Shown here: positions 892 to 32,664 of the stretch, one piece after another
Layout: each line of letters opens with the position of its first letter
Position numbering within the stretch: position 1 is the first letter of the stretch
Virus record (IMG/VR): IMGVR_UViG_2634166512_000003
DNA: 47,118 nt
Source of the DNA: a virus
Taxonomy: Duplodnaviria; Heunggongvirae; Uroviricota; Caudoviricetes
Reading direction: 5' to 3' (one strand)
The notes under the pieces: generated by a model
Seen by the model: the letters and a program-made list of their open reading frames with translations, nothing else
The model's database searches: none
What the model was told of the DNA's origin: nothing
Translations under genes and position numbers: made by a program

Positions 892-981
892 GGAGAGATG
901 CCGGAGCGGCTGAACGGACCGGTCTCGAAAACCGGAGTAGGGGCAACTCTACCGGGGGTTCAAATCCCCCTCTCTCCGCCA
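892..981 (+). tRNA. serU: tRNA-Ser, anticodon CGA, long variable arm, encoded CCA
   Basis: GGAGAGA acceptor 5' strand pairs with TCTCTCC at the 3' end; anticodon loop CTCGAAA (anticodon CGA); T-arm GGGGGTTCAAATCCCCC; ends GCCA; 90 nt. Confidence 0.85.
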
Positions 982-2702: not shown

Positions 2703-3271
2703 TAGCGTACCCTCAGCGAACGTTCGCCGCGTTCCAGATGTGCGCCTGGTACCGGGTTTAATAACTCGGCTGGTGGTGTTTCTCCACGCGCCAGTATTTC
2801 GGCGGCAACCGCCTCCGCAGATTCAATCACTTCTTTAATGGCTCGCTTGTTTGGTGTAATAACCGTTTCTACATCAACAAGTGACACGCCTTCATACTCA
2901 TCCGGGATCTTATCTTTGCTATCGATAATTACCCGGATAGCCCCCTGTGCATCAGTAAATGTGTTTTTTGCGGTTTTTAGTTTATCCAGGCCAGCAGCTT
3001 GCAGGCAGGCGAGCATATGCTTCCGAATTGCTTTTTCCTTGCCTTCAAAGGACGTCTTACGGGTAGCCAGGCGAGACATTTCTTCAGCGCAGGTACTGGC
3101 ATTGCCCTGTAAATTGCGGCAGATGACCATCATGGCGTCCAGTTTGTCTCCCAGTTCTCCTTCCATACCTTCAAGTGTGTCGGCGATCATCTCTGGCGTC
3201 AGTTCGTCGGAGGTTTCCAGCAGGTCAATCAGGCTGGCGTATTCTTTTGCAATAGCGATAGCGGTGCTCAT
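2702..3271 (-). CDS. Gp157-family-like phage protein (recombination/early module)
   Basis: 189-aa acidic protein directly downstream of and overlapping the large annealing-domain protein; family assignment from memory and synteny only. Confidence 0.4.
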   Translation of the reverse strand: MSTAIAIAKEYASLIDLLETSDELTPEMIADTLEGMEGELGDKLDAMMVICRNLQGNASTCAEEMSRLATRKTSFEGKEKAIRKHMLACLQAAGLDKLKTAKNTFTDAQGAIRVIIDSKDKIPDEYEGVSLVDVETVITPNKRAIKEVIESAEAVAAEILARGETPPAELLNPVPGAHLERGERSLRVR

Positions 3272-5490
3272 GCTGTTTGCTCCTGTGCGGCGGCGAGAGC
3301 GGCGAGGCGTTCGGTTTTGATTTCATTCAAACGGCGCAGGCGCGAACCAAGATAAGTTGAATACTCCTTATCACCTTTGGATTCTGCGGCTTTGCGGTGA
3401 ACTTCTACTTCCCGCGCAATAAGGCCATAGACTTTATTAACTTCATTGGGGGTTACGGCTGCAGCCAGTGTTTTGGCAACACCTGAGAGTCGTTCATCCA
3501 GTTCTTCACGCAGTCGGGTAGCATCCTCTGCTTTCTCGCTTGCCTTCTTAATACCGTATTCTGTATTCAGCTCGGCGGTGTAGGCACTATCGTTATGCAT
3601 ATCCATATAAACATCTGCCGCAAATCCCAGATGAGATAGTGCTTTGACGGTGGCATCAGTAAGAGACTTTTTGGAGGCCTCTTTTTCCATTACCAGTGCC
3701 CCTTTGTTATTTTTTGATATGTAATCCGTGTGGCCATATGACGGAATAAATCCTTTCACTCCGTTCCAGACGTACCAGAGATCTATCCGGATGGTGTGTA
3801 CTGACAGGCAGAACAGGGAGCCGTCAGCATCCCTGACAGGTTTTTGTCCAATAATTTTCCCTGTCTGATCCTGTATAGGTTCAAGTAATGGCACACCGCG
3901 ATCCACTCGCTCCTCCTTGATTTCAACTCCCCAACCAATGCCTTCCATTCCCAGCACTTCAGTCGCACGCATCAAAATATATTGTGCGCGTATGGAGTGC
4001 AGTCCTGCACCGTAATCATTATGTGTGACATACGCAGGATCGGTCCGCTGAACGCGATTCCAGATAGCCAAATTTGCTTTGCTCTGGTCATCATTCATTG
4101 CTGACAGATAATGCTCCATGCGAATTGATGCAGTTTTTTCCTCGGTATGGATCCGCTCAACCAGAGCGTCAACGTTCTGCACCAGGTCTTTTACCTGCTC
4201 GCTAAGTTTTTCTTGTGGAGGAGTCTCTTCTTCCAGGATAACAGTTACAGATTCCCGCTGTGATACGGCGTTATTTTCTGGTACGCCATACACATGGCGG
4301 GGCGTGACAAACTGCTCACGCAACTGCTGCAAACTACGCTCTCCAGCATTTGCTGCTTCGCTTTTTTCGCCCTGATTTGAGGGGGGTTCTGACATCATCC
4401 CATCGATTGAGAATCGCCCGCCGCCGTGGTTGGTGACTTTTACATCACCCTTTGGTGCTGCGTCCTTTGGCTTCTCTTCAACAGCATTTGCATCACGCTG
4501 CCCGTTAGCTTGCAGCCAGTTGTCGATGTGACTGCGCAGGGATTGCGGGAAATGGTACGTGTCTTTTGCGGGGGCACTCTGAACGACACCGAATACGGAT
4601 GCCCGGTCATAGGAAAGGATCTGATCCGTTGTGCGCAAGGCCATTGACCAGCGTTTAAAATCCTCCCGATCCTGGCTGATTATTTCGTCTGCCGCTTTCA
4701 GGACGCTGGGGGTGATTTTTTCCGGGCCAACGGGTAACAGAGCGCAGGCAATTTCACGATCCAGTGTAGCGTGAGTCTGTTTGTAAGGACGTGCGGATGC
4801 TGTTTCTGGTTTTACCTCCGGCAGCATTTCATCGCGTTTACCGGGATTCTCTACCCATTTTTTTATAAATTTGGAGATAGTCCAACTGGTCGGGTTTTGT
4901 TCCTGGGTATCGCAACTTGCCAAAATTGCATGTACCAGATTATTCAATCCAGCAATATGCATGTACTCGATGGGCTTACACGCCACCATGGCATCAAGAA
5001 CGATGCGGTTAAACGCGTCAACCTCATCCTCACTGTCAGTATCACTGTTGTCGAGCATCTCCAGGTATTCACGCGTCTGCGCAAGCAATTCACTGTTGAC
5101 TTCGTTGGCGTCGTGGCTGAACAGCAGAACGGCGGCGAATCGTTCACGAGCCGGCAGTTTCATCAGGTCGTTAACCTGTGCGATATCTGCTGAACCGCTA
5201 TCTACAACGGGGGTGTTAACTACCCATTTTTCGCCATCAAAACTGTGTTCTGTGGCGAACGTCTCATCAAACTCACCAACGCCTGGGCGCGGTTGGCCCG
5301 GGGCATCTTCCCAGATTTTAGGTTTGAAATAGTTGTCGCCGTGGTCAGGGTAGGCTTCCCACAATTTGCCGATGATGATGTTCTCGGCAACTTTTTTGTT
5401 AGGGGCGTCGATGGCGATGGCCAGCGCCGGGATCGCGCCGTTTTTGAGCGCGCCTTTTTTCGCTTCTAACAAGCCGTTAAAAATGGTCAT
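3268..5490 (-). CDS. large phage recombination protein: C-terminal Rad52/Sak/ERF-like single-strand annealing domain with about 400-aa N-terminal extension of unknown function
   Basis: 740-aa ORF with GAGGAAAGACC RBS; C-terminal half contains KKSLTDATVKALSHLGFAADVY, resembling the K-x-x-TDA-x-K-x-A-...-G-x-G-...-Y signature of Rad52-like annealing proteins; N-terminal half not recognised. Confidence 0.5.
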   Translation of the reverse strand: MTIFNGLLEAKKGALKNGAIPALAIAIDAPNKKVAENIIIGKLWEAYPDHGDNYFKPKIWEDAPGQPRPGVGEFDETFATEHSFDGEKWVVNTPVVDSGSADIAQVNDLMKLPARERFAAVLLFSHDANEVNSELLAQTREYLEMLDNSDTDSEDEVDAFNRIVLDAMVACKPIEYMHIAGLNNLVHAILASCDTQEQNPTSWTISKFIKKWVENPGKRDEMLPEVKPETASARPYKQTHATLDREIACALLPVGPEKITPSVLKAADEIISQDREDFKRWSMALRTTDQILSYDRASVFGVVQSAPAKDTYHFPQSLRSHIDNWLQANGQRDANAVEEKPKDAAPKGDVKVTNHGGGRFSIDGMMSEPPSNQGEKSEAANAGERSLQQLREQFVTPRHVYGVPENNAVSQRESVTVILEEETPPQEKLSEQVKDLVQNVDALVERIHTEEKTASIRMEHYLSAMNDDQSKANLAIWNRVQRTDPAYVTHNDYGAGLHSIRAQYILMRATEVLGMEGIGWGVEIKEERVDRGVPLLEPIQDQTGKIIGQKPVRDADGSLFCLSVHTIRIDLWYVWNGVKGFIPSYGHTDYISKNNKGALVMEKEASKKSLTDATVKALSHLGFAADVYMDMHNDSAYTAELNTEYGIKKASEKAEDATRLREELDERLSGVAKTLAAAVTPNEVNKVYGLIAREVEVHRKAAESKGDKEYSTYLGSRLRRLNEIKTERLAALAAAQEQTA

Positions 5491-5520
5491 TGGTCTTTCC
5501 TCATTACAGGTCAGTGGTTT

Positions 5521-5841
5521 TTAGTAGGGGAGCTCATCGGTATCTGGCGTGTATTCGATGCAAAGTAACTGCTGGATTTTGTCATCGATAGCAGCAATAC
5601 GCTGTTGAGCGTCGGCGGCTGTATTCTGTTTTTGCTCACGCAGCTGCTCGACCTGCAAACCGATGATGTCGATTGGCTGGGGCTGGTTGACGGTAATTTC
5701 AATTTCGCGGCTTTCCAGAAGGATGTACCTGTCTGGAAAATTTTTTGACATATCAACCGTCGCAATAAACAGCTTTTCATGGCTGAAAGTTGAAGTTGCA
5801 TAATGAATAAAGAGTGTTACTGGGATGGTGCGCGCTTCCAT
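5521..5841 (-). CDS. hypothetical phage protein (106 aa)
   Basis: ORF with AAGGAG RBS upstream of ATG at 5841. Confidence 0.45.
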   Translation of the reverse strand: MEARTIPVTLFIHYATSTFSHEKLFIATVDMSKNFPDRYILLESREIEITVNQPQPIDIIGLQVEQLREQKQNTAADAQQRIAAIDDKIQQLLCIEYTPDTDELPY

Positions 5842-6689
5842 AGCGACTCCTTGGTGATGTATACTCGGGACCGATCAGCGAATATTGATCAGCTTCCATA
5901 GCGTCAGTGTCGTTGGTCTTTCCTCATCACAAGTTTGGTCACTTGTGATAAATCCGAATGGTTTGGTCGCCGTTCGGGGTAACTGGCCCGCCTTGTGCGG
6001 GTCTTTTGCTATCTAAAGGGTGCCGGTTACGTTTCCGGCGTCGTTATGTTTCCATCACGACCGTACGGGGCTGGTCTTTCCTGTTTTGAGCTGGTCAGGC
6101 TCATGGTCAACGCTGGTCAGGCGTGGTACTTCCTCCGGTCTTTCCCTGGTGTCACGCTGCGGGTTTGGCCTCTCCTGTTGGGGACTCAGGCACAGCGATA
6201 AAACCTGGCTGTGTGAAAAAATGGCCCATCGTGCGGACTGGGCAAAGACTAAACACAGCAAATTGATGATGGGCGCCCGGAATCGAACCGGGTAACGGGC
6301 AGGGAGTTCCCGTTAAACACCTGTTCACCACAACCGGGAGCGCACTCCGCCATTTCAAAATTTAACGACAAAGCTCAAAGTTGAGTCGATGAAGTGCGCT
6401 CTCGTGTTGTAGCCAGGACTCTTCCCTGGTGGTCACACCGTATCGCCTTGATGGTGAATCAATCGCTCATACCTGGCTGTGGCTTGCACATTCCGGCTAC
6501 CTGCTATGGAGACAACGCGTTAAGGCTCCGCTTCCATCCAGACCGCTTCGACACATGTGCCATATGCCGGCGAAGTCTTTCCCTCTGTCATCGTGTTGGC
6601 GCCGACGCGCAAAATTTGATGCCGTCTTTCCGGCTGTCAGAACGTGTTTCTGAACAACTGCCGCTGGGTAAGCGTTGTTGATGAAAGTG

Positions 6690-6750
6690 ACTTTACAATT
6701 TGTATTTGTAATGGTCAACGTATTTTTAAAAAATAATTTGTAGTTAGGGG
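6690..6750. promoter_or_regulatory. putative leftward operator/promoter region (OL/PL-like) downstream of repressor gene, with ATTTGTA-type repeats
   Basis: acaatttgtatttgtaatgg and aataatttgtagtt share the ATTTGTA(A/T)T motif also found in the repressor/cro intergenic region. Confidence 0.3.
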
Positions 6751-6837
6751 CAAAAAAATATTCACTGTGTAAAGGTGTTTTTGTGTTAGGGGGAAAGTTG
6801 CATGCCAGCAGCGGCTGGCCTGAAAATTTGAACTGAA

Positions 6838-7251
6838 CTATTTTGTCTGGTTTTTGGCTTCAAGTAGTTCTTTTAGCAGTAGATCGAAGTGCTCTCTTTT
6901 TTCTTTTAGCTCATTGATTAATTTATTTTTTTCGCTCTCAGGCAGTCCTCTGAATAGTTGCAGTAGAGCCTGTTCTTGCGGGGTTAGTTCTTGATTGTAA
7001 TTACCCGGGTGTAGCGTGGATTCATCCAAATATTCCCCTTCATTCATGAAGAAAAAATGAACAGGGTATCCGGTCACTTTTGCTAGCTTGTCTAATTTAT
7101 CTTTTCTTGGAGTTACCCCATTACACCATGCCTGAACTGATTGAGCCGTAACCCCAATATGGCGAGCTAACTCAGATTGAGACCAGCCTAAGTCTTTTAG
7201 AATCCGTTGTAGTCGGCTAGCAAAAGCCATGTTTTTCGTTTTTGTGTTCAT
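6838..7251 (-). CDS. prophage repressor, DicA-like (XRE-family HTH N-terminus, no autopeptidase domain)
   Basis: HTH region LKDLGWSQSELARHIGVTAQSVQAWCNG; C-terminal LLQLFRGLPESEKNKL resembles DicA as recalled; divergent from a Cro-like gene; ORF-track start at 7266 is TTG, first ATG at 7251 preferred. Confidence 0.75.
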   Translation of the reverse strand: MNTKTKNMAFASRLQRILKDLGWSQSELARHIGVTAQSVQAWCNGVTPRKDKLDKLAKVTGYPVHFFFMNEGEYLDESTLHPGNYNQELTPQEQALLQLFRGLPESEKNKLINELKEKREHFDLLLKELLEAKNQTK

Positions 7252-7266
7252 ACCGTAAGGATACAA

Positions 7267-7349
7267 GGTTTAATTGTAGGGAGCATTGCAAATATAATTT
7301 GTAATTACAGTTATGATTTGTAATGATGGCGCGGACACAAGGAGTCCAT
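7267..7349. promoter_or_regulatory. divergent operator/promoter region between repressor and cro-like genes
   Basis: Contains perfect 10-bp palindrome TGTAATTACA, two ATTTGTAAT direct repeats, a TATAAT hexamer and TTGCAA; AAGGAG RBS before cro-like ATG at 7350. Confidence 0.45.
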
Positions 7350-7580
7350 ATGGATAAACAACTGCAAGACAAAATTCTTTCCGTAATGAGTCAATCCGAG
7401 TTAGGGCGGCGATTAGGGAAAAAACCACAAACGGTAAGCCTCTGGTTCAAAGGAAGGGTTCCCGGTGAAGAGGTTTTGCGCACATCTGAAGCTCTTGAAT
7501 GGCGCGTGACCCCCCATGATCTTAGACCGGATCTTTACCCAAACCCAGATGACAGCTTGCCTAAAACGAAAGCAGCTTAA
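7350..7580 (+). CDS. Cro-like / YdaS-family HTH regulator
   Basis: Small protein with HTH (LGKKPQTVSLWFKG) divergent from repressor; start at ATG 7350 with AAGGAG RBS rather than ORF-track 7323. Confidence 0.65.
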   Translation: MDKQLQDKILSVMSQSELGRRLGKKPQTVSLWFKGRVPGEEVLRTSEALEWRVTPHDLRPDLYPNPDDSLPKTKAA

Positions 7581-7638
7581 CTGTTGGTGAGCCCCAAATC
7601 TGATTAAGCGTAATCAATTTTTAGCGACAGGAGACGCT

Positions 7639-8115
7639 ATGGAAAACCAAGAGGAATTACAAAAAGAGATTTTGACCTGGGCGGCAAGGGCAGGGCAGGA
7701 ACTCGTCACGATTGAAATCTGCCGGGCCTGGTTCAGTCAGGGACGCAATGATGAGTTGAGACTACATGAATTTGAGGACGCGGACGGCAATGTGGACTGG
7801 AGAGCCATCAACAACAATCGGCAGAAAATCTTTCGCTGGTTACGTGGCGAGACAACGGCGGCGCGCCGAAAAACTCAGGTGCTGGCCAGTGTGATGAAAG
7901 CCGTGCTACCCGCAGAACGGCGGGCACGTCTGGAGTCGCTGGGCGATCCCGTTTTGCTGGCAACGCTGGCGGCAAAAGAAGGGGTGGAAGCGATTAACGC
8001 TGTACATCTCCACTTCGCGCCAGAGTTAACTATCCAGGAAATTGACGAAGCAATAGCGGCGCTGGTAGCGACGCGAGGAGCAGTGATACGCACTGCGCAA
8101 GACCACCATGCATGA
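7639..8115 (+). CDS. YdaT-like early regulatory protein (CII-position gene)
   Basis: 158-aa ORF immediately after cro-like gene, as in ydaS-ydaT pairs of Rac-type prophages; assignment by synteny and recalled similarity. Confidence 0.45.
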   Translation: MENQEELQKEILTWAARAGQELVTIEICRAWFSQGRNDELRLHEFEDADGNVDWRAINNNRQKIFRWLRGETTAARRKTQVLASVMKAVLPAERRARLESLGDPVLLATLAAKEGVEAINAVHLHFAPELTIQEIDEAIAALVATRGAVIRTAQDHHA

Positions 8116-8154
8116 GCGCCTGACCAGCGTTTAACTTATACCGAGGAAAGACCG

Positions 8155-12062: not shown

Positions 12063-13412
12063 GCGTCAATACGGTGCTCCGTTGACGCTTACCGTGTTTC
12101 ACCGTCGCGCTTTCAGCGAAATCAAAAAGCAGGCACTGGCGAACGGCATGATCGACATGTTGTTTATCAGCGAAGCGCTGGGCGGTTCCAGCCTTGCGGA
12201 TCTGTCTCAAATATCCCGGATCCCGGCAACGGCACCGAATCTGAAAGGCTATGCCGGGAAAATGGTGCGGGCATGGCGGAGCCGCAAAATGGCGGCATTG
12301 TTGCAATCTGGCGCGGATGGTATCCGTAACGCTGTAAACCAGAGTCAGCGTGATGAGGTTATTGAATCTCATGTTGCTCAGGTGCTGGATATGAGCGCCG
12401 CTACCGGCACAGTCCAGCCGGTACACATCAAAGAGCTGTTACCGCTCTACATTGACACCGTTGATAAACGGATGTCTGGTGACGCGCAGGAAATGATGCT
12501 GAAAACCGGAGTCGAGGATCTGGATGTCGCCCTGGGCGGTATCAACATGACCGATCTTGTTGTGGTTGCCGGTCGTCCAGGCATGGGGAAAACGGAATTT
12601 ACCCTGAAGATTATCGATGGCGTTACCGCAGATGGCGGCGGCGCACTGTTTTTCAGCATGGAAATGGGCGCTCAGCAGATTGTTGAACGTACCGTTGCCG
12701 GGGCTGGGAATATGTCAACGTCGCGTCTGCGTAATCCAAAAGAAATGGACGATGAGGATTTGACCAGATTAACCGCCGCGCTTGCAATCATGCAGGATCG
12801 CGATATCTGGATTGTTGATGCCACTGATTTGACGATTGAGCAGATCCGCGCCATTGCAGAGACTCATAAACGCCGTTATCCGCACCTGAAGTTGATTGGT
12901 GTTGATTACATGGGCCTGATCAAAAAACCGAAGGCCGAGCGCCACGATCTCGCTGTCGGGCATATCTCCCGCAACATGAAGACTATGGCCATGCGTCTGC
13001 ATACCCCTGTTTTTGCTCTTAGCCAGCTTTCCCGCCAGGTGGATTCTCGACCTGCTGGCCAGCGTCGCCCGGTGATGTCGGACCTGCGCGATTCCGGCAG
13101 TGTTGAGCAGGACGCTGACAGCATTTTGTTTTTGTACCGCGATGAAGTTTACACACCTGATTCACCTGCAAAGGGTATCGCCGAGGTGATTATCGGTAAA
13201 AACCGTTCTGGCGGGGCAGGTGAAATTATTTATCAGGAATTCCGGAATGGGCATTTCCTGCCAATTGATCAACACGTAGCACGCGAAAAAATACGCATCC
13301 AGAAGGAGGCAGAGCAACCGAGAAAACGTGAAAAACGGTATTCAAACAAAAACTTTAATACGGACCCATTTTAACCACGCATGACCAGCGTGAAATAACC
13401 GAGGAAAGACCA

Positions 13413-14677: not shown

Positions 14678-14769
14678 ATTGACTTAGAAAAAGCCCGGGG
14701 CTATAGTTTCCGCGCAGCCGCAAAATCGGTTGCCGGGATTTGCACCCCGGATATCTAAAAGGCGACAAC

Positions 14770-14790
14770 GACGCGCCAGCGTCTTTTTTA
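14770..14790 (+). terminator. rho-independent terminator-like hairpin (possibly bidirectional)
   Basis: GACGC-GCCA-GCGTC stem-loop followed by TTTTTT; A-rich tract upstream; embedded in longer inverted repeat CGACAA...TTGTCG. Confidence 0.5.
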
Positions 14791-14949
14791 TTGTCGTGCG
14801 CACAGCCACATCCGCGATTTATGGTGGGGCGTGTAGGGGAGTCGAAAGGCTCGCCGGGTCCTTTTAGCCGGTAGTGCAAACCCTGCATGTCTCACCACCC
14901 AAAGATTTGCACCTGAGGGGGGTGATTATCCGACTAAAAGGAAATCGCT

Positions 14950-23377: not shown

Positions 23378-24048
23378 TGAGTAACGAGTATTTATTGGAA
23401 TATACCCGCATAAAACTGCGCGCTGCATTACGGGATTTGTCTGGTGGTTCTAAGGGGCAACTGGAAGCATTGTGTGAGCACCCGCCAGCAGATAAAAACG
23501 CATACCCACGCAAACATATTCATCGTGTGCAACTGGAGGACCGGACCGTTGATGCTCTGGTTACGCCAGTTTATGCCCTGGAAAGTTTCAGCAGACGTCG
23601 TCCCGCGCCGCCGATGAATGATTATGAATTCGCTGATTCATCGTGGCGCCGCGCCGTGAATTCGCTCGACGTTAGCCAGCAGGCGTGGTTGCGCTATTGC
23701 TACGGTGGTCACCTGGCGTTCAAACACCAAACAGCTATTTGTGAGGCTGTCTGGAGTCGCTATAAAGGACACATCCCCGCGTCAACTCAGAGAAAAGTAG
23801 CTAAGCGTCTGCTTTCGTTGGTGTGGTTGTCCGTGCAGGCGGTTGCAGCAGCAAATAAACGCGAGGATTTTAAGGAGATGGCTGGATCTGCGCTAGCTGG
23901 AATGTTGTCTGTTTCTCGTTCCACCTGGTGCGAAACATACTCCCCGCACTGGGTAGGAATGAAAGAGGCGGTGAGAGCACTTGATGAAATGGCACTTCTT
24001 GCAACTTTGCATCATTATCAAAACCATTTAGACGACGTTTGCGTATAA
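23377..24048 (+). CDS. late-gene antiterminator Q-like protein
   Basis: 223-aa Cys-containing protein located between nin-type genes and the lysis cassette, followed by a terminator-like hairpin; assignment mainly by synteny. Confidence 0.5.
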   Translation: MSNEYLLEYTRIKLRAALRDLSGGSKGQLEALCEHPPADKNAYPRKHIHRVQLEDRTVDALVTPVYALESFSRRRPAPPMNDYEFADSSWRRAVNSLDVSQQAWLRYCYGGHLAFKHQTAICEAVWSRYKGHIPASTQRKVAKRLLSLVWLSVQAVAAANKREDFKEMAGSALAGMLSVSRSTWCETYSPHWVGMKEAVRALDEMALLATLHHYQNHLDDVCV

Positions 24049-24116
24049 TGCTTGCAAAACCGAACAAAACAGGCCATATTAAACGCTAATTTGGTATGTT
24101 GCCAAATTTCTAAGAA

Positions 24117-24143
24117 CCTCGCCACGGCGGGGTTTTGTCGTTT
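24117..24143 (+). terminator. tR'-like terminator between Q-like gene and lysis genes
   Basis: CCTCGC-CACG-GCGGGG hairpin (one G-U pair) followed by TTTTGTCGTTT. Confidence 0.4.
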
Positions 24144-24160
24144 CTGAATCAGGAAAAATC

Positions 24161-24544
24161 ATGTCTGAACCTCTAACCGCTGGCGTTGCTGCTGGCTCGG
24201 CGGGGGTGACGTTTGCTGCGTTATTTCCTGAGGCAACACCTGCAGTGATGATCTGTGCGCTGGCTGGCGCAGCTCTCTATGTGTTGTCGTCCGGGCAGCA
24301 TCGATTCTGGAAGCAGGTTATTTTCGCACTCATTTCGTTTGTTGGCGGTGTGTATTGCGCTGAGACAGCGTCAGCCATCATTACCGGTATTCTGAACGCG
24401 GTGCTGAGTCACCTGAACCCTCCCGTAACAGTAAAAGTCTCTCCCGCCATTGGTGCACTGGTTGCATCAGTAATCAGCGTTACATCACTGTTGCGGATCA
24501 TGTCACAAGCTCGTTTATGGAAATCAGATAAGGGGATGAAATAA
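24161..24544 (+). CDS. holin (multi-pass membrane protein)
   Basis: 127-aa protein with several hydrophobic helices, first gene after the late terminator. Confidence 0.55.
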   Translation: MSEPLTAGVAAGSAGVTFAALFPEATPAVMICALAGAALYVLSSGQHRFWKQVIFALISFVGGVYCAETASAIITGILNAVLSHLNPPVTVKVSPAIGALVASVISVTSLLRIMSQARLWKSDKGMK

Positions 24545-24828
24545 TGACCCTGCACTCTGTCCTCATTAATGCCAATGCAATTATCTGTCTGATGCTGGCA
24601 CTGCGGTTGATGTTTTTTCAAAAAACAGGCCGCTATCGTTTTTTCATCTCACTAACTGCTTACCTGGCGATTCTGTCTGCTGCGTGGATAGCCCTACGAA
24701 TTTTTTACGGGAAATACACGCAGGTTGATCCCGCAGAGTTCTTTCTCAATCTCACCATCTGTATTGCTGTCTGGCGGGCACGAGGGAATATTTCAAAAAT
24801 AACAGGAGACAGGTATGACCGATCCTAA
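24544..24828 (+). CDS. holin/antiholin-like small membrane protein
   Basis: 94-aa hydrophobic protein overlapping neighbours within the lysis cassette. Confidence 0.4.
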   Translation: MTLHSVLINANAIICLMLALRLMFFQKTGRYRFFISLTAYLAILSAAWIALRIFYGKYTQVDPAEFFLNLTICIAVWRARGNISKITGDRYDRS

Positions 24829-25294
24829 ATGGCTAATTGAGGCACGAAAAAATCTCGGCATTCGGGAAATGAAAGGGAAGCAACATGCTGCAGAAATTGT
24901 GCAGTACTGGAAAGATATCAAACGCGGCGGCATTAAGGATGATGAAACCCCGTGGTGCGCTGCCTTCACCGGAGCAATGCTGGAACGTGTAGGTATTCGC
25001 TCAACGCGTTTTGAGTCTGCGAATTCTTATCTCGATTGGGGTAATGAACTGAAGGAACCCGCCTATGGATGCATTGCTATTCTGTCTCGGTCTGGCGGTG
25101 GTCACGTTGGCTTTGTTGTCGGGAAAAATGCCGCCGGGGATTTAATGATTTTGGGTGGTAACCAGGCAGATGAAGTAAATATCAAAGCTTTTCCTCGTTC
25201 CCGCGTAACAGGCTACCGCTGGCCAGCAGGCCAAACTGATGTTCCACAATCACTTCCATTCGTGAATGCTGAGAAATCTATCTCAGAAGCGTAG
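24815..25294 (+). CDS. endolysin, Cys-His peptidase type (TIGR02594-like)
   Basis: PWCAAF cysteine and GGHVGFVVG histidine regions typical of NlpC/P60- or CHAP-like lysins as recalled; position in lysis cassette. Confidence 0.6.
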   Translation: MTDPKWLIEARKNLGIREMKGKQHAAEIVQYWKDIKRGGIKDDETPWCAAFTGAMLERVGIRSTRFESANSYLDWGNELKEPAYGCIAILSRSGGGHVGFVVGKNAAGDLMILGGNQADEVNIKAFPRSRVTGYRWPAGQTDVPQSLPFVNAEKSISEA

Positions 25295-25301
25295 GTAAAA
25301 C

Positions 25302-25496
25302 GTGAAAAAACTTCTCTTAGCTGTCGCGTTCTTCACGCTGGCAGGCTGCACACATTCGACATACACCGAAGCGACTCGCGCTGACGACAGCAGTATTAAA
25401 CACGTGACGATCGCGCCGGGTACGAAGATTACAACAGCGAACGGTGGTTGTATTGATTCAACCGGGGCAGTGGCTTCATGCCCCGTTGGAAAATAG
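25302..25496 (+). CDS. small lipoprotein (possible outer-membrane spanin component)
   Basis: Signal peptide with lipobox LAGC; 64 aa; follows endolysin. Confidence 0.45.
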   Translation: MKKLLLAVAFFTLAGCTHSTYTEATRADDSSIKHVTIAPGTKITTANGGCIDSTGAVASCPVGK

Positions 25497-25634
25497 GGTA
25501 ATTTATCTTAATGAATTGACGATTGGTCATTTGGCCCAGGCAACCTGACCACACAAAGGTGCTAAAGACAGAATCATAAATATGACATATTTTTAAATGC
25601 CGATTTAACTGGGTATTTTTTAATAGGAAATTAT

Positions 25635-25913
25635 ATGTCACAGTTTTTGTTCGTTGGTGGGCCTTTTCACGGTCGTGTTGAAGACATTTATTCTAATTCC
25701 GCTATTGAACCCGTAGGTAGCACGGAGTTAAGGGTTTCTGTGGGGGATGAGGTAGTAATTTATGAACGCTCCGATTTTAGTCGATGGAATGGACCGCATT
25801 ATCGCGTTGCAGTTGCAAATGGCGCGAGTGAGTTAATTCCTCAGACTATCGACGAGATGAATTATCACACATCTAAAATTTCTCCTATTTCGAAAGTTAC
25901 TAGCACTGACTAA
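25635..25913 (+). CDS. hypothetical protein
   Basis: ORF only. Confidence 0.35.
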   Translation: MSQFLFVGGPFHGRVEDIYSNSAIEPVGSTELRVSVGDEVVIYERSDFSRWNGPHYRVAVANGASELIPQTIDEMNYHTSKISPISKVTSTD

Positions 25914-26251
25914 TAGCCCGGATAGTGACCTTCAAAGATGTGCACGGGATGTTTTGTACGTGCATATTCAGCAAGGATTTTGTTTGTTAAAGGTGTCTTG
26001 AGTGTTGTTGGCTCTTTTAATAGATCGATGGCATCAAGACGCCTTAGTGCATCGCCCTTCAGATAATTTATCGTAATGGTTGTGATTAAAAAATCACCGC
26101 AAAAACCACTGCAATGAATTTTCCAGCACGTATCGTGATTTGTCCATGTGGCATCAGAGCCGCATACAGGGCAATTTTTTGATTCCTGCATACCAATAAC
26201 CATAGAGCATTTCTCTTCATTGAATGTTCGAGTTAAAAGCATAGACGACAT
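25910..26251 (-). CDS. hypothetical Cys-rich protein (possible zinc ribbon)
   Basis: CPVCGS...CWKIHCSGFCGD cysteine cluster; minus-strand gene in AT-rich segment. Confidence 0.35.
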   Translation of the reverse strand: MSSMLLTRTFNEEKCSMVIGMQESKNCPVCGSDATWTNHDTCWKIHCSGFCGDFLITTITINYLKGDALRRLDAIDLLKEPTTLKTPLTNKILAEYARTKHPVHIFEGHYPGY

Positions 26252-26281
26252 CTGGGCACCATGAGAATACAGTAGGATTTA

Positions 26282-26452
26282 ATTACATGAGCTAACCGGG
26301 ACTGGGCTTGAGCTTCAGAAGCGATTCCTGTCCGAGTACGTCAAATCATGTGTATCACCGAAAGAATGGTGTGACGCGCAGGGACTGAGCTTCGCAACAG
26401 CTCGCCGACGTATAAAAAACAACTGCGCAATGTGCCAAAGAGCTGGTGGCTG
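26282..26452 (+). pseudogene. remnant of a terminase small-subunit-like N-terminus (no start codon)
   Basis: Open frame ELQKRFLSEYVKS...EWCDAQGLSFATARRRIKN resembles recalled HTH N-termini of terminase small subunits; frame opens directly after a stop with no ATG/GTG/TTG. Confidence 0.3.
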
Positions 26453-26519
26453 ATGAAAGAGACGCTTTACTTAAACGAGAGGCCGCCTTTTTGTTTTAAG
26501 GCGGCACACATTCAACAGG

Positions 26520-26765
26520 TTAAGGTAACCGATTTGACCATTTAGTTGCACGCCAGTTGTTCTGAATCATAATCTCCTCAAGTATCTCATCTGAAGGCTC
26601 TGCTTCGCCGCTTAACCATTCTCTTAAAGTTGGACAATGTAGGTAAGAGGAGTTCGCACGATAAAAAGATACGATGGCGTCCTCTGATAACTTCTCAGGA
26701 AATTTTTTGGGGTCAGCTTCTTTTAATATTACGCTCATTAAGGCTTCGATTTTTTCTTTGTTCAT
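26520..26765 (-). CDS. hypothetical small protein (81 aa) in AT-rich segment
   Basis: Internal ATG of the 187-aa ORF-track entry; the upstream extension overlaps the cos-like/terminase upstream region and is unlikely to be coding. Confidence 0.3.
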   Translation of the reverse strand: MNKEKIEALMSVILKEADPKKFPEKLSEDAIVSFYRANSSYLHCPTLREWLSGEAEPSDEILEEIMIQNNWRATKWSNRLP

Positions 26766-27137
26766 TTTTTTTGTGTGCTCATGGTTGTTGCTTTTCTGTA
26801 AGAATATCAATAATTTCAAGATATATACACATAGGGAAAACTTTGTTCGGTAGTCTATCGATACAGCGCAAAAGGATGGCTCGCTGCCAAAGTGAAAGCT
26901 TACGCTGATAATGAGATACACAAAGCTGATGTATGCAAACAAGTACGCCGCGAGGCTACAGTCGAGTTTGATGAACCTGATGCGAGCCCCCGATTCCTGT
27001 CCTGAAAGGGATATAGCCCCCCTGGTCGCGGGTCCTTTCCGAAATTCAAAACACCGAGGGTCGGTAGACGCGCAAAAACTCACTCATTTTTAGTATTTTT
27101 TCATTTTATGTATTTCCGGTTCCGGTGAGGATTTTTA

Positions 27138-27704
27138 ATGGCAAGTCAGGCTGAGGTCGCAGCACATTTACTGCTATCAGATCGTCGTCTGCGCGATCTC
27201 GCAAAACTTCCGGGAGCACCAGTCCCACAAGGACGTGGTGATTGGGAGCTAGACGCCTGGCGCCATTTCTATATTCATTATCTCCGGAGTAATAGACGCG
27301 ACACAGTTGGTACTGACGAACCGGAAGTGGGGGACAATTCTCCCGAAAAAAATCGCGAGCAGTGGCTGAAAAATGAGGAACGACAGGAGCGAATCCTGAT
27401 GGCTCGCGTGAAACGCCGCATTCTTGCTAAACGCTACGCGCCAATTGAATTAATCAGCGTCGCTGTATCTCGCGTCGCAGTTGAATTACGTACCCGTGTC
27501 GAATCGTGGCCACCACGGTTGAAAAAGGTGTGGCCTGAAATGCCGCAGGAGGCGAGCAGTGTTTTACGAGAGGAGCTGGCGATAGCCCTGAATGAACTGG
27601 CAGACATACGAGTCGACTTCAGCGATTACGATGTCAGCGATATCGAACGCGATCTCGACAGGGTTGAATCCCTTGCGCGTGACGATACCGATGACGGGGG
27701 TTGA
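27138..27704 (+). CDS. terminase small subunit (Nu1-position)
   Basis: 188-aa gene directly upstream of and overlapping the large terminase gene; assignment by synteny. Confidence 0.55.
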   Translation: MASQAEVAAHLLLSDRRLRDLAKLPGAPVPQGRGDWELDAWRHFYIHYLRSNRRDTVGTDEPEVGDNSPEKNREQWLKNEERQERILMARVKRRILAKRYAPIELISVAVSRVAVELRTRVESWPPRLKKVWPEMPQEASSVLREELAIALNELADIRVDFSDYDVSDIERDLDRVESLARDDTDDGG

Positions 27705-29556
27705 GTGGGCTGATAAATATTTTTATCTCCCTGAGGGCTCCAGCCACATCGCTGGCCACTGGACGACTCAGCCGGTCCAGGTAGTGATGCTCAATATGAT
27801 GACTAACGACGCGATAAAAATCGTGTCTGTTCGCAAATCAGCTCGTCTCGGTTATACAAAAATACTCGTCGCGGCGCTGCTCTATTTCGCTGAGCACAAA
27901 AAACGTAGTGCCGTGGTCTATCAGCCTATCGATGACGAATCGGATGGATTTGTTGCCGACGAGGTTGACCCCGCTATCGCCGAAATGCCGGTGATTCAGA
28001 AAATTTTCCCCGACTGGGATAAAAGCAACGAGCGTAACAATCTCCAGCGTAAAGAAATGAGCGGCGCGATTATTGATTTTCGCGGCGCGAGTGCACCAGG
28101 AAATTTCCGGCGACTAACGAAACAGGTTGTCGAGGGTGACGAAGTTGACGGCTGGCCGCTGGAAGTTGCCAAAAAAGGCAAAGGCGAGGGCTCGCCCATC
28201 GAACTGGCGCTCGTTCGAATTAAAGGGGCAGCGTACCCGAAGGCGATTTTCGGCTCGACGCCAACCGTCACCGGAAAAAGTCATATTGAAATGCTGGAGG
28301 ATGCCGCTGACCTGACGTTTCGTTTTTACCTGAAATGTCCGCATTGTGGCGAGGAGCAGGTCCTGGTATTTGGTTTCGACGGCATCGAATATGGCCTCAA
28401 ATGGGATAATAGCCTGCAGACAAATGAGGCGAAATCGTCGTCCGCGTATTACCAGTGCTGCCACTGTCCTGAGCATTTTTACTATCGCGATCTCGAAAAA
28501 ATGGAGCTCGCGGGGCGCTGGATAGCAGAGGACTGCACCTGGACGCGGGACGGTATTCGTTTTTTTGATCACGACGGTGGTGTCGTTCGCGCGCCGAAAC
28601 ACGCGGCGATCGTGATAAACGCCATGTATTCGCTGAATCTCGACGGCTGGGGCGAGATTGTCAGCGAGTGGCTGAAAGCGAAGGGCGATCCGCTCAAAGA
28701 AAAGACGTTTCATAACACGACGCTCGGCGAACTCTGGAGTGACGTAGCCAGCGAGCAGCTGGAGCACGATATTCTGGTTAATCGCCGGGAAAAATACGCC
28801 AGCCAGGTTCCTGACGGTGTTGTTTATCTGACCGGCGGCATCGACTCTCAGACGTCCGGTCGCTACGAGTGTTACGTGTGGGGCTGGGGAGTGGAGGAGG
28901 AGTGCTGGCTGATTGATAAAACAATCGTCCTCGGTCGCTACGACGAGGAGGACACGCTGCAGCGCGTCGACGGAGTGATTCGCAAACAATACCGGCGCAG
29001 CGACGGGACCACAATCGGCGTCAGTCGCTGGGCGTGGGATACCGGTGGTATAGATGCGCAGGTCGTTTATAACCGCTCGCTGAAACTCGGTCCGCTGTGG
29101 GTCATTCCAATTAAAGGTGCGAGTTCATACGGTCAGCCAGTCGTAAATATGCCGCGTACACGTAACGCGAATAAAGTCTATTTGTCGTTAATCGGTACTG
29201 ATACGGCAAAAGATTTGCTCGCAATGCGCCTGCCGCTGGAACCCGATTCTAAATCGGCGACACCAAGTGCGATTCATTTTCCCAACGACGACGAAATATT
29301 CGGCACGACAGAGGCAAAACAGCTCGTCTCTGAAGTTCTGATCCCGAAACTGATTAACGGTCGCGTCGTTTATCGCTGGGACAACCAGGGCCGGCGAAAT
29401 GAGGCGCTCGACTGCTGGGTATACGCGCTGGCAGCGCTACGTATCAGTAAAATTCGTTTCCAGCTCAATCTCGAGACGCTCGCTGAGCAACGGAAAAAAT
29501 CACAAAACAAACTGTCTCTCGAGGAGATGGCCAGAATGCTCGGAGGGAGCTCATGA
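27631..29556 (+). CDS. terminase large subunit, lambda gpA-like
   Basis: VEWADKYFYLPEG, VSVRKSARLGYTK, CPHCGEEQ, WGWG and NEALDCWVYALAALR blocks match recalled lambda gpA; start ambiguous (27592, 27631 or 27691). Confidence 0.85.
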   Translation: MSAISNAISTGLNPLRVTIPMTGVEWADKYFYLPEGSSHIAGHWTTQPVQVVMLNMMTNDAIKIVSVRKSARLGYTKILVAALLYFAEHKKRSAVVYQPIDDESDGFVADEVDPAIAEMPVIQKIFPDWDKSNERNNLQRKEMSGAIIDFRGASAPGNFRRLTKQVVEGDEVDGWPLEVAKKGKGEGSPIELALVRIKGAAYPKAIFGSTPTVTGKSHIEMLEDAADLTFRFYLKCPHCGEEQVLVFGFDGIEYGLKWDNSLQTNEAKSSSAYYQCCHCPEHFYYRDLEKMELAGRWIAEDCTWTRDGIRFFDHDGGVVRAPKHAAIVINAMYSLNLDGWGEIVSEWLKAKGDPLKEKTFHNTTLGELWSDVASEQLEHDILVNRREKYASQVPDGVVYLTGGIDSQTSGRYECYVWGWGVEEECWLIDKTIVLGRYDEEDTLQRVDGVIRKQYRRSDGTTIGVSRWAWDTGGIDAQVVYNRSLKLGPLWVIPIKGASSYGQPVVNMPRTRNANKVYLSLIGTDTAKDLLAMRLPLEPDSKSATPSAIHFPNDDEIFGTTEAKQLVSEVLIPKLINGRVVYRWDNQGRRNEALDCWVYALAALRISKIRFQLNLETLAEQRKKSQNKLSLEEMARMLGGSS

Positions 29557-29786
29557 TGTCGCGCGAGGTTTTAACAGAACGGCTGCTGGAAGCTGAAATT
29601 GCCCTGCACAAATTATTAACGGGTAGATCGACTGTATCGCTGTCTCACGGCGATTCAGCGGGAAATAACCGGAGCTATCAATACTCACAGGCGAGTATTG
29701 AACAGCTCCGAACGTACATTATCGAGCTGAAATCACAGCTCGGTCTGAGTACGGGACGCCGCCGTCCCGTGGGAGTTCGATTATGA
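29553..29786 (+). CDS. head-tail joining protein W-like
   Basis: 77 aa; ALHKLLTG and IIELKSQLG resemble recalled lambda gpW; position after terminase. Confidence 0.7.
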   Translation: MMSREVLTERLLEAEIALHKLLTGRSTVSLSHGDSAGNNRSYQYSQASIEQLRTYIIELKSQLGLSTGRRRPVGVRL

Positions 29787-31354
29787 CTGCTCAGCAGTTG
29801 CTCGGGCCTGACGGTAAAACGCCACTACGCCGTTACGCGGGGTATAACGGCGGCGGTCCCGGCTTCGGTGGCCAGCTGATTGACTGGAATGCACCACAGC
29901 AAAGCGCCGATGCGGCACTGCTGCCTAATTTTTATCGCGGTAACGCGCGAGCAGACGATCTCGTTCGTAATAACGGCGTCGCGTCGAACGCCGTGCAGCT
30001 GCATCAGGATCATATCGTCGGCAATCTGTTTAAGTTGAGTTATCGCCCTAACTGGCGTTACATCGGGATATCTCGCGAGGACGCCAGGGCGCTGGCGCGT
30101 GACGTTGAGGTCGCGTGGACTGAATACGCCGAGGACCCTCACTGCACGATTGATATCGAGCGGAAACGGACGTTCACAATGATGATTCGCGAAGGCGTGG
30201 CCACTCACGCGTTCAACGGTGAAACCTGCGTACAACCGGTGTGGGAGAGCTGCGCCGGCAGCGTTTTTCGGACGCGATTCAAAATGGTCTCACCGAAACG
30301 AATTCGAAATCCTGGCTACGCAGCTGACACTCAATTTCGCCGCGCCGGTGTTGATATCGATAAAAACGGGGCCGCGGTTGGGTACTGGATAGCCGAGGAT
30401 ACCTATCCCCTCGGCGGAGTTGGTAAATGCCGGCGCATACCAGCAAAACTCAGCAGCGGCAGACACGCATTCATTCACATATTCGAGCCGCTCGAGGACG
30501 GACAAACCCGCGGAGATAACATTTTTTACAGCGTAATGGAGCGGCTGAAAATGCTCGATACGCTGCAGCAAACACAGCTGCAGAGCGCCATCGTGAAGGC
30601 GATGTACGCCGCCACAATCGAATCAGAGCTCGACAGCCAGCAGGCGTTTGAATATATCGCCGGCGCGGGTACTGATATCGACTCGAACCCGCTGAGTTCG
30701 TTTATTCAGAGTTACGTGACGTACTACAACGGCGCAAATATCAAGCTCGGTGGTGTGAAAGTTCCCCACCTGCATCCCGGCGACAAACTCAGTTTACAGA
30801 CCGCTCAGAATGCTGATGCTGGTTTCAGTTCGCTGGAAAAATCACTCCTGCGTTACGTTGCCGCTGGCGTCGGCGCGTCATATGAGGAACTGAGTCGGGA
30901 CTACAGCCAGGTCAGTTACTCCAGCGCGCGGGCCAGCGCAAACGTGAGCTGGCGTTTTTTCATGGGCCGTCGACGTTTTATCGCCGCACGACAGGCGTCA
31001 CTGATGTTCTGCTGCTGGTTTGAGGAAGCTCTGGCGCGCGGAGTTATCACCCTGCCACGCTCAGCGGTCCGGTCGTTTTATGAAGCGCGGAACTCCTGGA
31101 CGAACGCGCTCTGGATCGGCGCTGGTCGCATGGCGATTGATGGGCTGAAAGAGGTTCAGGAGAGCGCCATGCGCATCACGACTGGCCTCAGCACGTATCA
31201 GAACGAACTCGCGCTGCAGGGGCAGGACTACGAGGAGGTCATGGAACAACAGGAATACGAAATTCAGCGCCGGCGCGAAATGGGGCTGAGCGAACCATCC
31301 TGGTCAGTATCTCACCCCTCAAATACCAACGATAACGGCTGGGGAGGTAACTGA
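29783..31354 (+). CDS. portal protein (lambda gpB-like)
   Basis: 523-aa protein between W and the protease gene; synteny with lambda head module. Confidence 0.8.
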   Translation: MTAQQLLGPDGKTPLRRYAGYNGGGPGFGGQLIDWNAPQQSADAALLPNFYRGNARADDLVRNNGVASNAVQLHQDHIVGNLFKLSYRPNWRYIGISREDARALARDVEVAWTEYAEDPHCTIDIERKRTFTMMIREGVATHAFNGETCVQPVWESCAGSVFRTRFKMVSPKRIRNPGYAADTQFRRAGVDIDKNGAAVGYWIAEDTYPLGGVGKCRRIPAKLSSGRHAFIHIFEPLEDGQTRGDNIFYSVMERLKMLDTLQQTQLQSAIVKAMYAATIESELDSQQAFEYIAGAGTDIDSNPLSSFIQSYVTYYNGANIKLGGVKVPHLHPGDKLSLQTAQNADAGFSSLEKSLLRYVAAGVGASYEELSRDYSQVSYSSARASANVSWRFFMGRRRFIAARQASLMFCCWFEEALARGVITLPRSAVRSFYEARNSWTNALWIGAGRMAIDGLKEVQESAMRITTGLSTYQNELALQGQDYEEVMEQQEYEIQRRREMGLSEPSWSVSHPSNTNDNGWGGN

Positions 31355-32664
31355 TGCCGTGGAACAATTTTCCGCACCTCGCCGCTAGGGCGTTCAATCA
31401 ACCGCTTTTGCTGGAGCCCGCCTACGCGCGGGTATTTTTTTCTGCGCTGAGCGACCGGTTCGGTACCGGGCGACTGATTGATACAGCGTCAGGAGAGGTA
31501 ATGAACAGCGACGAAATGAACGCGCTCGCGATGGGGTGGGACAGCAGCGAGCGAACACGCCAGAAATCGTATCGCGTGGAGCGTGGTATAGCCGTTCTGC
31601 CGGTTACCGGGACGCTGGTTCATAAATTGGGTTATATCAATCCGGTCAGCGGGATGAGTGGTTACGACGGAATCGCAAAACGCCTGCAGCAGGCGATTTC
31701 TGATCCCGATGTTAAGGGGATCCTGCTGGATATTGATTCCCCTGGCGGTGAGGTCGCCGGCGCGTTTGATACCGCTGATTTAATCGCCCGGGCGCGAGAG
31801 CAAAAACCGGTGTGGGCGCTGGCCAGCGATACGGCCTGCAGCGCCGCATATTTGCTGGCGTCAGCGTGTTCGCGCCGGCTGATAACGCAGACCGGCACGG
31901 TTGGTTCAATCGGTGTCCTGATGGCTCACCGCTGCGTCGAAAAGGCGCTGGAGATTGCCGGCGTTGACGTGACGCTGATTTACGCCGGCGCGCACAAAGT
32001 CGACGGGAACCCGTATTCCCAGCTGCCCGACGACGTTCGCGACGAATTCCAGCTGAGTATTAACAGCACACGCGAGCAGTTCGCGCAAAAAGTCTCGGAT
32101 TATACCGGGCTGAAAAAATCCAGGGTGCTGGCCACAGAGGCCGCAGTATTTATCGGCGCGGACGCGATTAAATCTGGTCTCGCTGATCAACTCGTTAATT
32201 ACGCGGACGCTATCGCAGTGATGGCCGACGCACTGAAACCAAAAACGGAGCGATTTATGCCAGGTACAACAGAAACCACGGCGGAGACCACGACCACAGA
32301 ACAAACCGCGGCTACGACTACGGTCGCGCCGGTTGAGTCCAACGCGGAGCAGATTCGCGCGGACGCCGCATCGAGCGAACTGGCACGCGTGATGGCCATC
32401 ATCAACTGTCCCGAAGCTGTTGGGCGCGAGGCGCAGGCAAAAGCGCTCGCTGCCGTCCCCGGGATGACGGTCGGGCAGGCGCAGGCTGTCCTCGCGGCAG
32501 CACCGCAAACAGCGCAGGCGCGGACAGAAACGGCGCTCGATACACTCATGAGCACTGAATCACCGGAAACTATTCAGGATGCCGGCAGCACCACGGCAAC
32601 AGGAACAACCGCAAACGTCTCGATGCTGGTCGCGGCAGGGCGTTCAATTTTAGGGGATGAATAA
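31354..32664 (+). CDS. prohead protease / scaffold (lambda gpC-like, ClpP/S49-type)
   Basis: GILLDIDSPGGEVAG and SAAYLLASAC motifs typical of S49-family head proteases; Thr/Ala-rich C-terminal scaffold-like region. Confidence 0.8.
   Translation: MPWNNFPHLAARAFNQPLLLEPAYARVFFSALSDRFGTGRLIDTASGEVMNSDEMNALAMGWDSSERTRQKSYRVERGIAVLPVTGTLVHKLGYINPVSGMSGYDGIAKRLQQAISDPDVKGILLDIDSPGGEVAGAFDTADLIARAREQKPVWALASDTACSAAYLLASACSRRLITQTGTVGSIGVLMAHRCVEKALEIAGVDVTLIYAGAHKVDGNPYSQLPDDVRDEFQLSINSTREQFAQKVSDYTGLKKSRVLATEAAVFIGADAIKSGLADQLVNYADAIAVMADALKPKTERFMPGTTETTAETTTTEQTAATTTVAPVESNAEQIRADAASSELARVMAIINCPEAVGREAQAKALAAVPGMTVGQAQAVLAAAPQTAQARTETALDTLMSTESPETIQDAGSTTATGTTANVSMLVAAGRSILGDE

Follow-up and report, generated by a model that had tools for sequence, protein, structure and literature searches.

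In phages P1 and P7 the C4 antisense RNA, and in P4 the CI antisense RNA, are cut from leader transcripts by RNase P by way of transfer RNA (tRNA)-like features. Acceptor-like and T-arm-like elements together with a CCA-like 3' motif make up the signal for the enzyme, and the operons in question are under repressor control. Here we describe an element that resembles these RNAs in some respects and departs from them in others, located in IMG/VR virus record IMGVR_UViG_2634166512_000003, a stretch of 47,118 nucleotides (nt) from a member of the Caudoviricetes (hereafter the window). Its minus strand contains a T-arm hairpin which, judged from the sequence, belongs to a tRNA-like module in a phage leader RNA, resembling a tRNA without D-arm, and which lies next to a module similar to the 3' part of the small RNA (sRNA) RprA. 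We give about even chances to the reading that this tRNA-shaped module, not itself a tRNA, has a role in processing or stability that helps to release the RprA-like sRNA. What the analysis shows is the sequence itself, its uniqueness in the window, the compensatory changes in its helices, the real tRNA found at the equivalent position in related phages, the similarity to RprA, and the lack of a separate consensus promoter for the RprA-like part.

As with C4 and CI, a small phage RNA would originate from an untranslated leader, and a genuine C4 RNA is encoded in the same window. The C4 model (RF01695, CL00128) matched only at the latter site and not at the tRNA-like element (Table 1), where neither sequence nor covariance-model similarity to C4/CI is found; moreover, the element has a canonical T-loop, and its downstream part is RprA-like instead of carrying C4-type antisense loops. 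The likeness to RprA (RF00034) lies in the 3' end, including UUGCUGUGUxUAGUCUUUGCCC, in the terminator stem and in the U-tail, whereas the module in the window resides in a prophage and not at the rprA locus upstream of ydiL, and has no consensus promoter of its own. A further comparison is with AgvB and AsxR, the Hfq anti-sRNAs of enterohaemorrhagic Escherichia coli prophages, which consist of a conserved 3' module of ~42 nt plus variable parts and interfere with core-genome sRNA networks (PMC4104026). They differ from the present module in their location at the PR' moron site, in sequence, in having their own promoters and in showing no link to tRNA-like modules. Finally, a tRNA-shaped element that lies in a longer non-coding transcript and would define the ends of neighbouring RNAs recalls the mascRNA of MALAT1 and mitochondrial 'tRNA punctuation', and its three-way-junction shape recalls the D-armless mitochondrial tRNAs. 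These systems are eukaryotic or organellar and show no homology to the element; the analogy would be mechanistic only.

From 6314 to 6270 the minus strand reads AACGGG-AACTCCCTG-CCCGTT-A-CCCGG-TTCGATT-CCGGG-CGCCCA. The original prediction, made from the letters alone, had pointed out a textbook T-stem-loop with CGCCCA behind it, a 6-bp hairpin in front of it, surroundings poor in open reading frames (ORFs) and the absence of a complete cloverleaf, and on all these points our results agree with it. The stem strands CCCGG (6292-6288) and CCGGG (6280-6276) enclose the loop TTCGATT (6287-6281), and a T-arm with the 5-bp stem and GTTCRANYC loop of a tRNA is present at 6292-6276; CGCCCA (6275-6270) follows immediately, and one base upstream stands the hairpin formed by AACGGG (6314-6309) and CCCGTT (6299-6294) around AACTCCCTG. 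The motif GGTTCRANTCC occurs twice in the 47-kb window (0.22 expected; 0 of 100 shuffles reach two), the second copy belonging to a genuine tRNA-Ser, and the 23-mer of the T-arm is single-copy in the window even when three mismatches are allowed. This excess over shuffles, the uniqueness and the compensatory stem changes described below rule out a chance hairpin.

ARAGORN, in both standard and mitochondrial mode, reports no tRNA or transfer-messenger RNA (tmRNA) at the element in any of its three lineages, and Rfam gives nothing over it at gathering thresholds. When these were relaxed, tRNA-Sec scored 19.3 bits (E=1.6) against a gathering score of 47. A canonical tRNA gene is ruled out by both programs, and the element has no 7-bp acceptor, no D-arm and no anticodon arm with 5-bp stem and 7-nt loop; neither program finds a tmRNA in the window. 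Y RNA/YrlA is absent from the Rfam matches with E<=10 in 5000-7500, the presence of the YrlA model in the library being unconfirmed, and no rsr-like (Ro60) gene is found among the annotated neighbours.

In the three-way-junction model a 4-bp acceptor-like helix (GGUG/C(G/A)CC; in the window GGUG 6329-6326 with CGCC 6275-6272, followed by CA at 6271-6270) is stacked immediately on the T-stem, a junction of 11 nt takes the place of the D-arm, and the hairpin at 6314-6294, with 6 bp and an 8-9-nt loop containing an invariant UCCCU, resembles an anticodon arm. Three pattern scans across IMG/VR, metagenomes and genomes retrieved three lineages. The first, the window type, is represented by many identical copies and by some single-nucleotide variants, few in number; a second comprises L008, L110, L252 and L357; and a third is found in L294, the Enterobacterales metagenome-assembled genome JAATGH010000055.1. 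At ~75% identity, these keep the T-loop, the UCCCU loop and the CCCA after the acceptor invariant. All 15 pairs form in the three lineages (four sequences), so that 60 of 60 cells are paired versus 35-53% in slid controls. Three pairs have changed on both sides (A-U/G-C/U-G; G-C/U-A; C-G/U-A/G-C) and three further pairs by wobble; the first pair of the T-stem covaries as C-G, U-A and G-C. A covariance model built in this analysis (R2) scores the window element at 100 bits, and in ~2 Mb of related phage loci it detected no further lineages and did not match the real tRNAs there. Between the window and L363, the commonest variant prophage, there are no differences in the 503 nt of non-coding leader at 6068-6570, whereas 12 sites differ in the adjacent 320-nt ORF. 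At 6067 the same two prophages are distinguished by a 15-nt insertion or deletion (GGGCTGGTCAGGCCC).

In all three lineages a CAGGGG is complementary to the UCCCU loop, but the H-type pseudoknot they would form is sterically doubtful in the model because no loop nucleotides are left between the strands. The 3' edge of the element appears to be a module boundary, since in L351 (metagenome OAZV01000002.1) the sequence diverges right after the T-stem (...CCGGGCGC) and L294 carries ~480 nt of a different RNA instead of the RprA-like module, followed by a CACCACAAU strand able to close with GUUGUGGUG. These junctions indicate recombination at module borders.

The 50 nt that follow the linker, among them UUGCUGUGUUUAGUCUUUGCCC, share 84% identity with the 3' end of rprA (E=7e-5, 28-Gb search), the core-genome gene of an Hfq-dependent sRNA, which is present in about 5,000, almost all, of the E. 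coli genomes. The conserved 3' region of RprA (UUGCUGUGUGUAGUCUUUGCCC, terminator, U-tail) is present: agreement with rprA extends to 22 of the 23 bases of UUGCUGUGUGUAGUCUUUGCCCA, to the terminator stem (GCCCA 6243-6239 with UGGGC 6228-6224) and to the U-tail (U-run 6221-6216), and a terminator-like site was also called here. With relaxed Rfam thresholds RprA scores 37.4 bits over 6324-6214; the lineage-2 copy reaches 56.2 bits, and neither attains the gathering score of 70. The central region of RprA (nt 30-70), which is also its rpoS-pairing region, is lacking in the window, as are an own promoter and the chromosomal locus, and the tRNA-like module stands there instead. According to published work (PMC9262595), nucleotides 30-70 pair with narP, RprA activates synthesis of RpoS and RicI and represses csgD, ydaM and narP, and a processed 47-nt form that exists in vivo is active by itself in repressing narP. 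The segment shared with the window corresponds to this processed form. In IMG/VR GCTGTGTNTAGTCTTTGCC was found in at least 120 viral contigs, with 86 distinct flanking contexts among the matches listed; it stands after coding regions (some with CCCCUGA as in RprA), GAAAGA hairpins and tRNA-like modules. One of the 86 contexts, picked up through a prophage call, is the genuine rprA locus. Our literature searches returned no paper describing a phage RprA-like sRNA, a P1 trnI-ban leader RNA or an epsilon15 non-coding RNA.

The only sigma-70-like site in 5400-7500 is TTGACC-17 nt-TAAAGT. It overlaps an operator-like ATTACAAAT half-site, and ATTACAAAT is present twice more in the repressor-cro intergenic region (7290-7325). 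Because the site lies in the position of lambda PL and shares this motif with the repressor-cro region, we read the ORF-free stretch as the probable untranslated leader of an early-left (PL-type) operon, which the repressor would presumably control. No promoter-like site was found in the same scan between the PL-type promoter and the RprA-like module, and the latter would consequently need to be released by processing.

PL-type transcription, the processing enzymes and their sites, the dependence on Hfq and the targets are what we infer in the following scheme. The leader would be a polycistronic non-coding precursor, with the tRNA mimic as its signal for processing and stability ('tRNA punctuation'). 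We propose such punctuation because the element stands at the 5' border of the RprA-like module, is followed by an A/U-rich linker of 8 nt and has retained features that tRNA-processing enzymes use, namely a T-arm stacked on an acceptor-like helix and then CCCA. RNase P may cut between GUUGU and GGUG and thus detach the upstream part of the leader (module A and a stalk hairpin, both described below). A second cut, between CCCA and UCAUCAAUU, may be made by RNase E or by RNase BN/Z, the latter treating the element like a tRNA that lacks CCA. The linker is a candidate endonuclease site since the RprA homology begins there and a 47-nt processed RprA is reported (PMC9262595). The predicted products are a ~114-nt (RprA-sized) and/or a ~47-nt RprA-like sRNA, which would act with Hfq after prophage induction.

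This scheme should be interpreted with some caution, as several points weigh against it. Only three lineages are known, and the covariation sample is therefore small. Folding of the single sequence misses the T-arm and barely beats shuffles (z = -1.8). A 7-bp acceptor (GUGGUGA/CGCCCAU) forms four of its seven pairs in the window and two of seven in lineage 2, where the pairing is not kept; the 4-bp GGUG/CRCC helix was preferred, and with a conserved acceptor-like helix of just 4 bp the element would be a weak substrate for RNase P. Furthermore, similarity to tRNA-Arg is low outside the T-loop, and from the alignment descent from a tRNA is not demonstrable. Lastly, more than 80 other contexts hold the RprA-like module without any T-arm, which it thus does not generally need.

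Upstream in the leader lies a ~160-nt structured RNA, module A, found by blastn of the ORF-free stretch, the matches of which are unannotated DNA in many phages. More than 120 IMG/VR contigs contain module A, and it lies unannotated in 107 GenBank phage records, including epsilon15-like phages, mEp390, mEp460, Klebsiella and Enterobacter phages and, as partial copies, Stx2/Stx2c phages; in P1, P7, D6 and SJ46 it stands between tRNA-Ile2(CAU) (trnI) and the helicase gene ban. The core GGUAGCCGGAAUGUGCAAG does not vary among 20 diverse aligned sequences, and module A has about 40 invariant bases. In this alignment 98.1% of cells are paired versus 26-49% in slid controls, 10 pairs show two-sided changes, and none of 500 shuffles equals what was observed. 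Of its two candidate pseudoknots one has a covarying pair (CACC/GGUG to AACC/GGUU) and the other is invariant, and RNAalifold favors a long-range alternative for the first helix. The window copy scores 139.9 bits with a second covariance model built in this analysis (R1), and no Rfam 15 family matches it. As far as these comparisons go, module A is an undescribed RNA family, present even in P1. We also considered the put RNA of HK022 and rejected it: in HK022 24000-32000 (PL-nun/putL) neither R1 (E<=1) nor the core motif with up to three mismatches gives a match. By analogy, the function of module A could nevertheless be similar to that of put.

In the epsilon15 record (NC_004775) the cassette at 2720-2947 holds a truncated module A (36 bits), and sites for the repressor (at the cassette promoter), for integration host factor and for RNase III (in the leader) are annotated by the depositors. 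These annotations fit a repressor-controlled and processed non-coding transcript. The leader is also recognizable in BUCT708 and BUCT709 (OM816834 and OM816835), which have 85% of it at 72% identity and the same repressor-cro-helicase layout; their label as 'Stenotrophomonas phage' is odd for so enterobacterial a region.

A leader this densely structured, with covarying helices throughout, raises the alternative that the T-loop hairpin, module A, the stalk and the GAAAGA hairpins all belong to one large folded RNA, within which the T-loop hairpin would be a tertiary-structure element working like the T-loops of RNase P RNA, rRNA or T-box RNAs and not as a processing mimic. T-loop-like hairpins indeed recur in apical parts of the cassettes, outside the called tRNAs (two in SPN1S, L125 2690-2775; others in L216, L221 and L133), examples being GCUGG-UUCAAUU-CCAGA and GUCAG-UUCGAUU-CGGAC in stalk apices. 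We nonetheless regard this alternative as unlikely: the modules assort independently, since lineages 2 and 3 have the T-arm module without module A in the DNA examined and P1 has module A without the T-arm module, and no partner for the T-loop was identified.

Between module A and the tRNA-like element a stalk hairpin pairs CGAGAGCGCACU (6404-6393) with AGUGCGCUCCCG (6346-6335), an inverted repeat of 12 nt that is 92% complementary and that, in single-sequence folding, is kept. The ACAAC-helix-GUUGY arrangement recurs in related loci in 57 distinct helix versions, the differences being largely compensatory. The strand UGCUCUUU..GUUGUGG was considered as boxA/boxC (Nus antitermination) and rejected as the primary feature because it is one side of a covarying helix, which includes such unrelated versions as GGCG/CGCC and AAGGGCAU/GUGCCCUU.

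The position after the stalk holds a tRNA in related cassettes. The 3' strand of the stalk (AGUGCUCUC..GUUGUGG) continues without interruption into a genuine tRNA-Arg(UCU) in phiV10, SPN1S and a Klebsiella phage; ARAGORN calls this tRNA in 26 of 124 distinct extracts with module A, and the cassettes of epsilon15, phiV10 and SPN1S carry it where the window has the T-arm element. The tRNA-Arg(UCU) of epsilon15-like phages and the tRNA-Ile2(CAU) of P1 share with the element this position relative to the stalk (...UGCUCUC..GUUGUGG) and a T-arm with a GGUUCGAxUCC loop; the element differs in its lack of a D-arm, its 4-bp acceptor, its 8-9-nt loop where an anticodon loop would be and the absence of an in-register 3' CCA. 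In other phages the slot is filled by the tRNA-shaped 'module B', with an acceptor-like GUGGUG/CACCAC helix, a D-like hairpin, an insert of 30-144 nt and a T-like hairpin, the D-like and T-like loops being complementary and covarying (GGCUGAU/AUCAGC to GGCUAAU/AUUAGC). Thirteen distinct versions of it were seen (e.g. in L138, L127, L129, L178 and L204). In BUCT708-type phages the slot is empty and the RprA-like module is kept. In phiV10 and SPN1S the last terminator of the cassette stands immediately before the following gene's ribosome-binding site, an arrangement that suggests control by read-through.

Given this slot, the element might be read as a decaying, functionless tRNA pseudogene, its T-arm the most recently degraded part. 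Rarity (three lineages only), the missing D-arm, the reduced acceptor, the lack of a proper CCA end and the BUCT708-like relatives that retain the RprA-like module with nothing in the slot would all agree with decay. Against decay, every stem difference is compensatory or a wobble with 100% of cells paired, loops and CCCA are invariant across lineages that are ~75% identical, and the 503 nt around the element show no substitution between prophage lineages that differ in the neighbouring ORF. We thus consider a pseudogene quite unlikely.

The Rfam alignments introduce another possibility, that both hairpins are stem-loops 1 and 2 of a full-length RprA paralogue at 6324-6214 and that the resemblance to a T-loop is coincidental. 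The RprA model aligns end to end with the T-arm at the second RprA hairpin (37.4 bits, and 56.2 in lineage 2), and length and three-hairpin layout are similar. Both scores are however below the gathering score, similarity is confined to the last 50 nt, the T-arm module joins unrelated downstream RNA in L294 and L351, and no promoter-like site stands directly upstream, all of which makes a paralogue very unlikely.

The original prediction had offered two explanations, a relic attachment-site core and part of a phage-encoded small RNA. For the former, one genome per species (185,579 species, 596 Gb) was scanned with the pattern GGTTCGATTCCGGNNNCCCA (17 specified bases). Of 96 matches, 85 lay outside tRNAs, mostly in GC-rich lineages, a number at the level of chance (~70 calculated), and the remaining 11 fell in tRNA-His, tRNA-Asn or tRNA-Cys genes with other acceptor sequences; no tRNA match has GGGCGCCCA, and no tRNA 3' end in these genomes carries GGTTCGATTCCGGGCGCCCA. 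A direct repeat of the 23-mer is missing from the window (up to three mismatches), although the far prophage end may lie outside it, and there is no integrase gene among the annotated neighbours of the T-arm, the integrase being ~4 kb off. Although a T-arm with a partial acceptor strand is what tRNA-targeting integrases duplicate, and the region is a mosaic, the lack of a matching tRNA 3' end and of a repeat copy, the distance from the integrase and the covarying helices (a relic would not show compensatory changes) leave next to no credence for a core duplicated from a tRNA 3' end by another integration module. The latter explanation holds in substance, as the hairpin is part of a structured leader module abutting an RprA-like sRNA with terminator; the prediction had missed this neighbouring module and the real tRNA at the same position in related phages.

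The context, i.e. the RprA-like modules and module A, is more interesting than the T-arm itself. A wider proposal, tentative and with the odds somewhat against it, is that temperate enterobacterial phages (Rac-like and HK97-like lambdoids, epsilon15-like podoviruses, P1/P7, Stx and Klebsiella phages) share an undescribed modular system of non-coding RNAs made from leaders under repressor control. Its parts would be module A, ACAAC...GUUGU stalks, real tRNAs or mimics, and Hfq-type sRNA modules, many copying the active 3' half of RprA; the tRNA mimics, as punctuation for RNase P/Z, would release sRNAs, and the RprA mimic would enter the Rcs/RpoS-linked network of the host upon induction. If true, this would be a bacterial or phage case of punctuation by a tRNA mimic that frees a regulatory sRNA from a long non-coding leader. 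Phages carrying copies of the active part of a core stress sRNA suggest direct interference with the host's control of stress, biofilm and conjugation. Module A, a strongly covarying family that is absent from Rfam 15 and unannotated even in P1, could be tested in a classic model phage.

Table 1. Positions of the leader modules and neighbouring features (window numbering unless another record is named)
Feature	Position	Strand	Remark
tRNA-like three-way junction	6270-6329	minus
A/U-rich single-stranded linker UCAUCAAU	6262-6269	minus	between tRNA-like and sRNA-like modules
Module resembling processed RprA	6212-6261	minus
Stalk hairpin	6330-6410	minus	ACAAC 6410-6406, helix, GUUGU 6334-6330
Module A	6407-6570	minus	four covarying helices, two candidate pseudoknots
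Module A of P1	NC_005856 71023-71203 (L361 1922-2102)
5' leader	6571-6684	minus	short hairpins including GCCG-GAAAGA-CGGC
Promoter-like site	6690-6718	minus	PL position, downstream of repressor gene
Remainder of putative untranslated leader	5900-6211	minus	GAAAGAC hairpins at 6145-6138, 6081-6074 and 5923-5916; ends before the 106-aa ORF
Stretch of ~1 kb without annotated coding sequence	5842-6837		according to the identical RefSeq record
106-aa ORF	5841-5521	minus	first early-left ORF
RecE-like exonuclease gene	3268-5490	minus
Integrase gene	1067-2095	minus	adjoins tRNA-Ser
Genuine tRNA-Ser	892-981		sole ARAGORN tRNA call in the window
Helix-turn-helix repressor gene	6838-7230	minus
cro-like and YdaT-family genes	7323-8115	plus	divergent from the repressor gene
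isrK and C4 antisense RNA	14714-14902	plus	C4 at 14817-14902
GGAAAGAC, minus-strand copies	2312-2319, 5493-5500, 5916-5923, 6074-6081, 6138-6145, 6575-6582, 6624-6631	minus
GGAAAGAC, plus-strand copies	8145-8152, 13403-13410	plus

The window is an E. coli prophage, Rac-like also in its gene order and integrated at tRNA-Ser(CGA) beside mtfA. Over 5450-7350 (a 1.9-kb query) identity to NZ_CP134380 (E. coli TUM11353) is 100%, and 479 of 5,426 complete E. coli genomes contain the region. The 5' leader also occurs in other phage contigs, fused directly to an RprA-like module. The nine copies of GGAAAGAC in the window exceed the expectation of 1.47. Four of them form an identical ribosome-binding context, GAGGAAAGACC(N0-2)ATG, before four phage genes; the other five are situated in the untranslated leader, where several form the loops of short hairpins. 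Over 6-7 nt GGAAAGAC is complementary to the seed AGUCUUU of the RprA-like module, a complementarity that could mean self-targeting, sponging or Hfq (ARN) binding. An N-like antiterminator that would bind the GAAAGA loops as boxB is not supported, as the 106-aa ORF has no arginine-rich motif and no N-like gene is annotated. The cro-like regulator followed by a YdaT-family toxin gene matches the ydaS-ydaT arrangement of Rac. In Rfam isrK (76.2 bits) is adjacent to the C4 antisense RNA (73.6 bits), a pair which indicates that the prophage has a P1-type immI/antirepressor control module.

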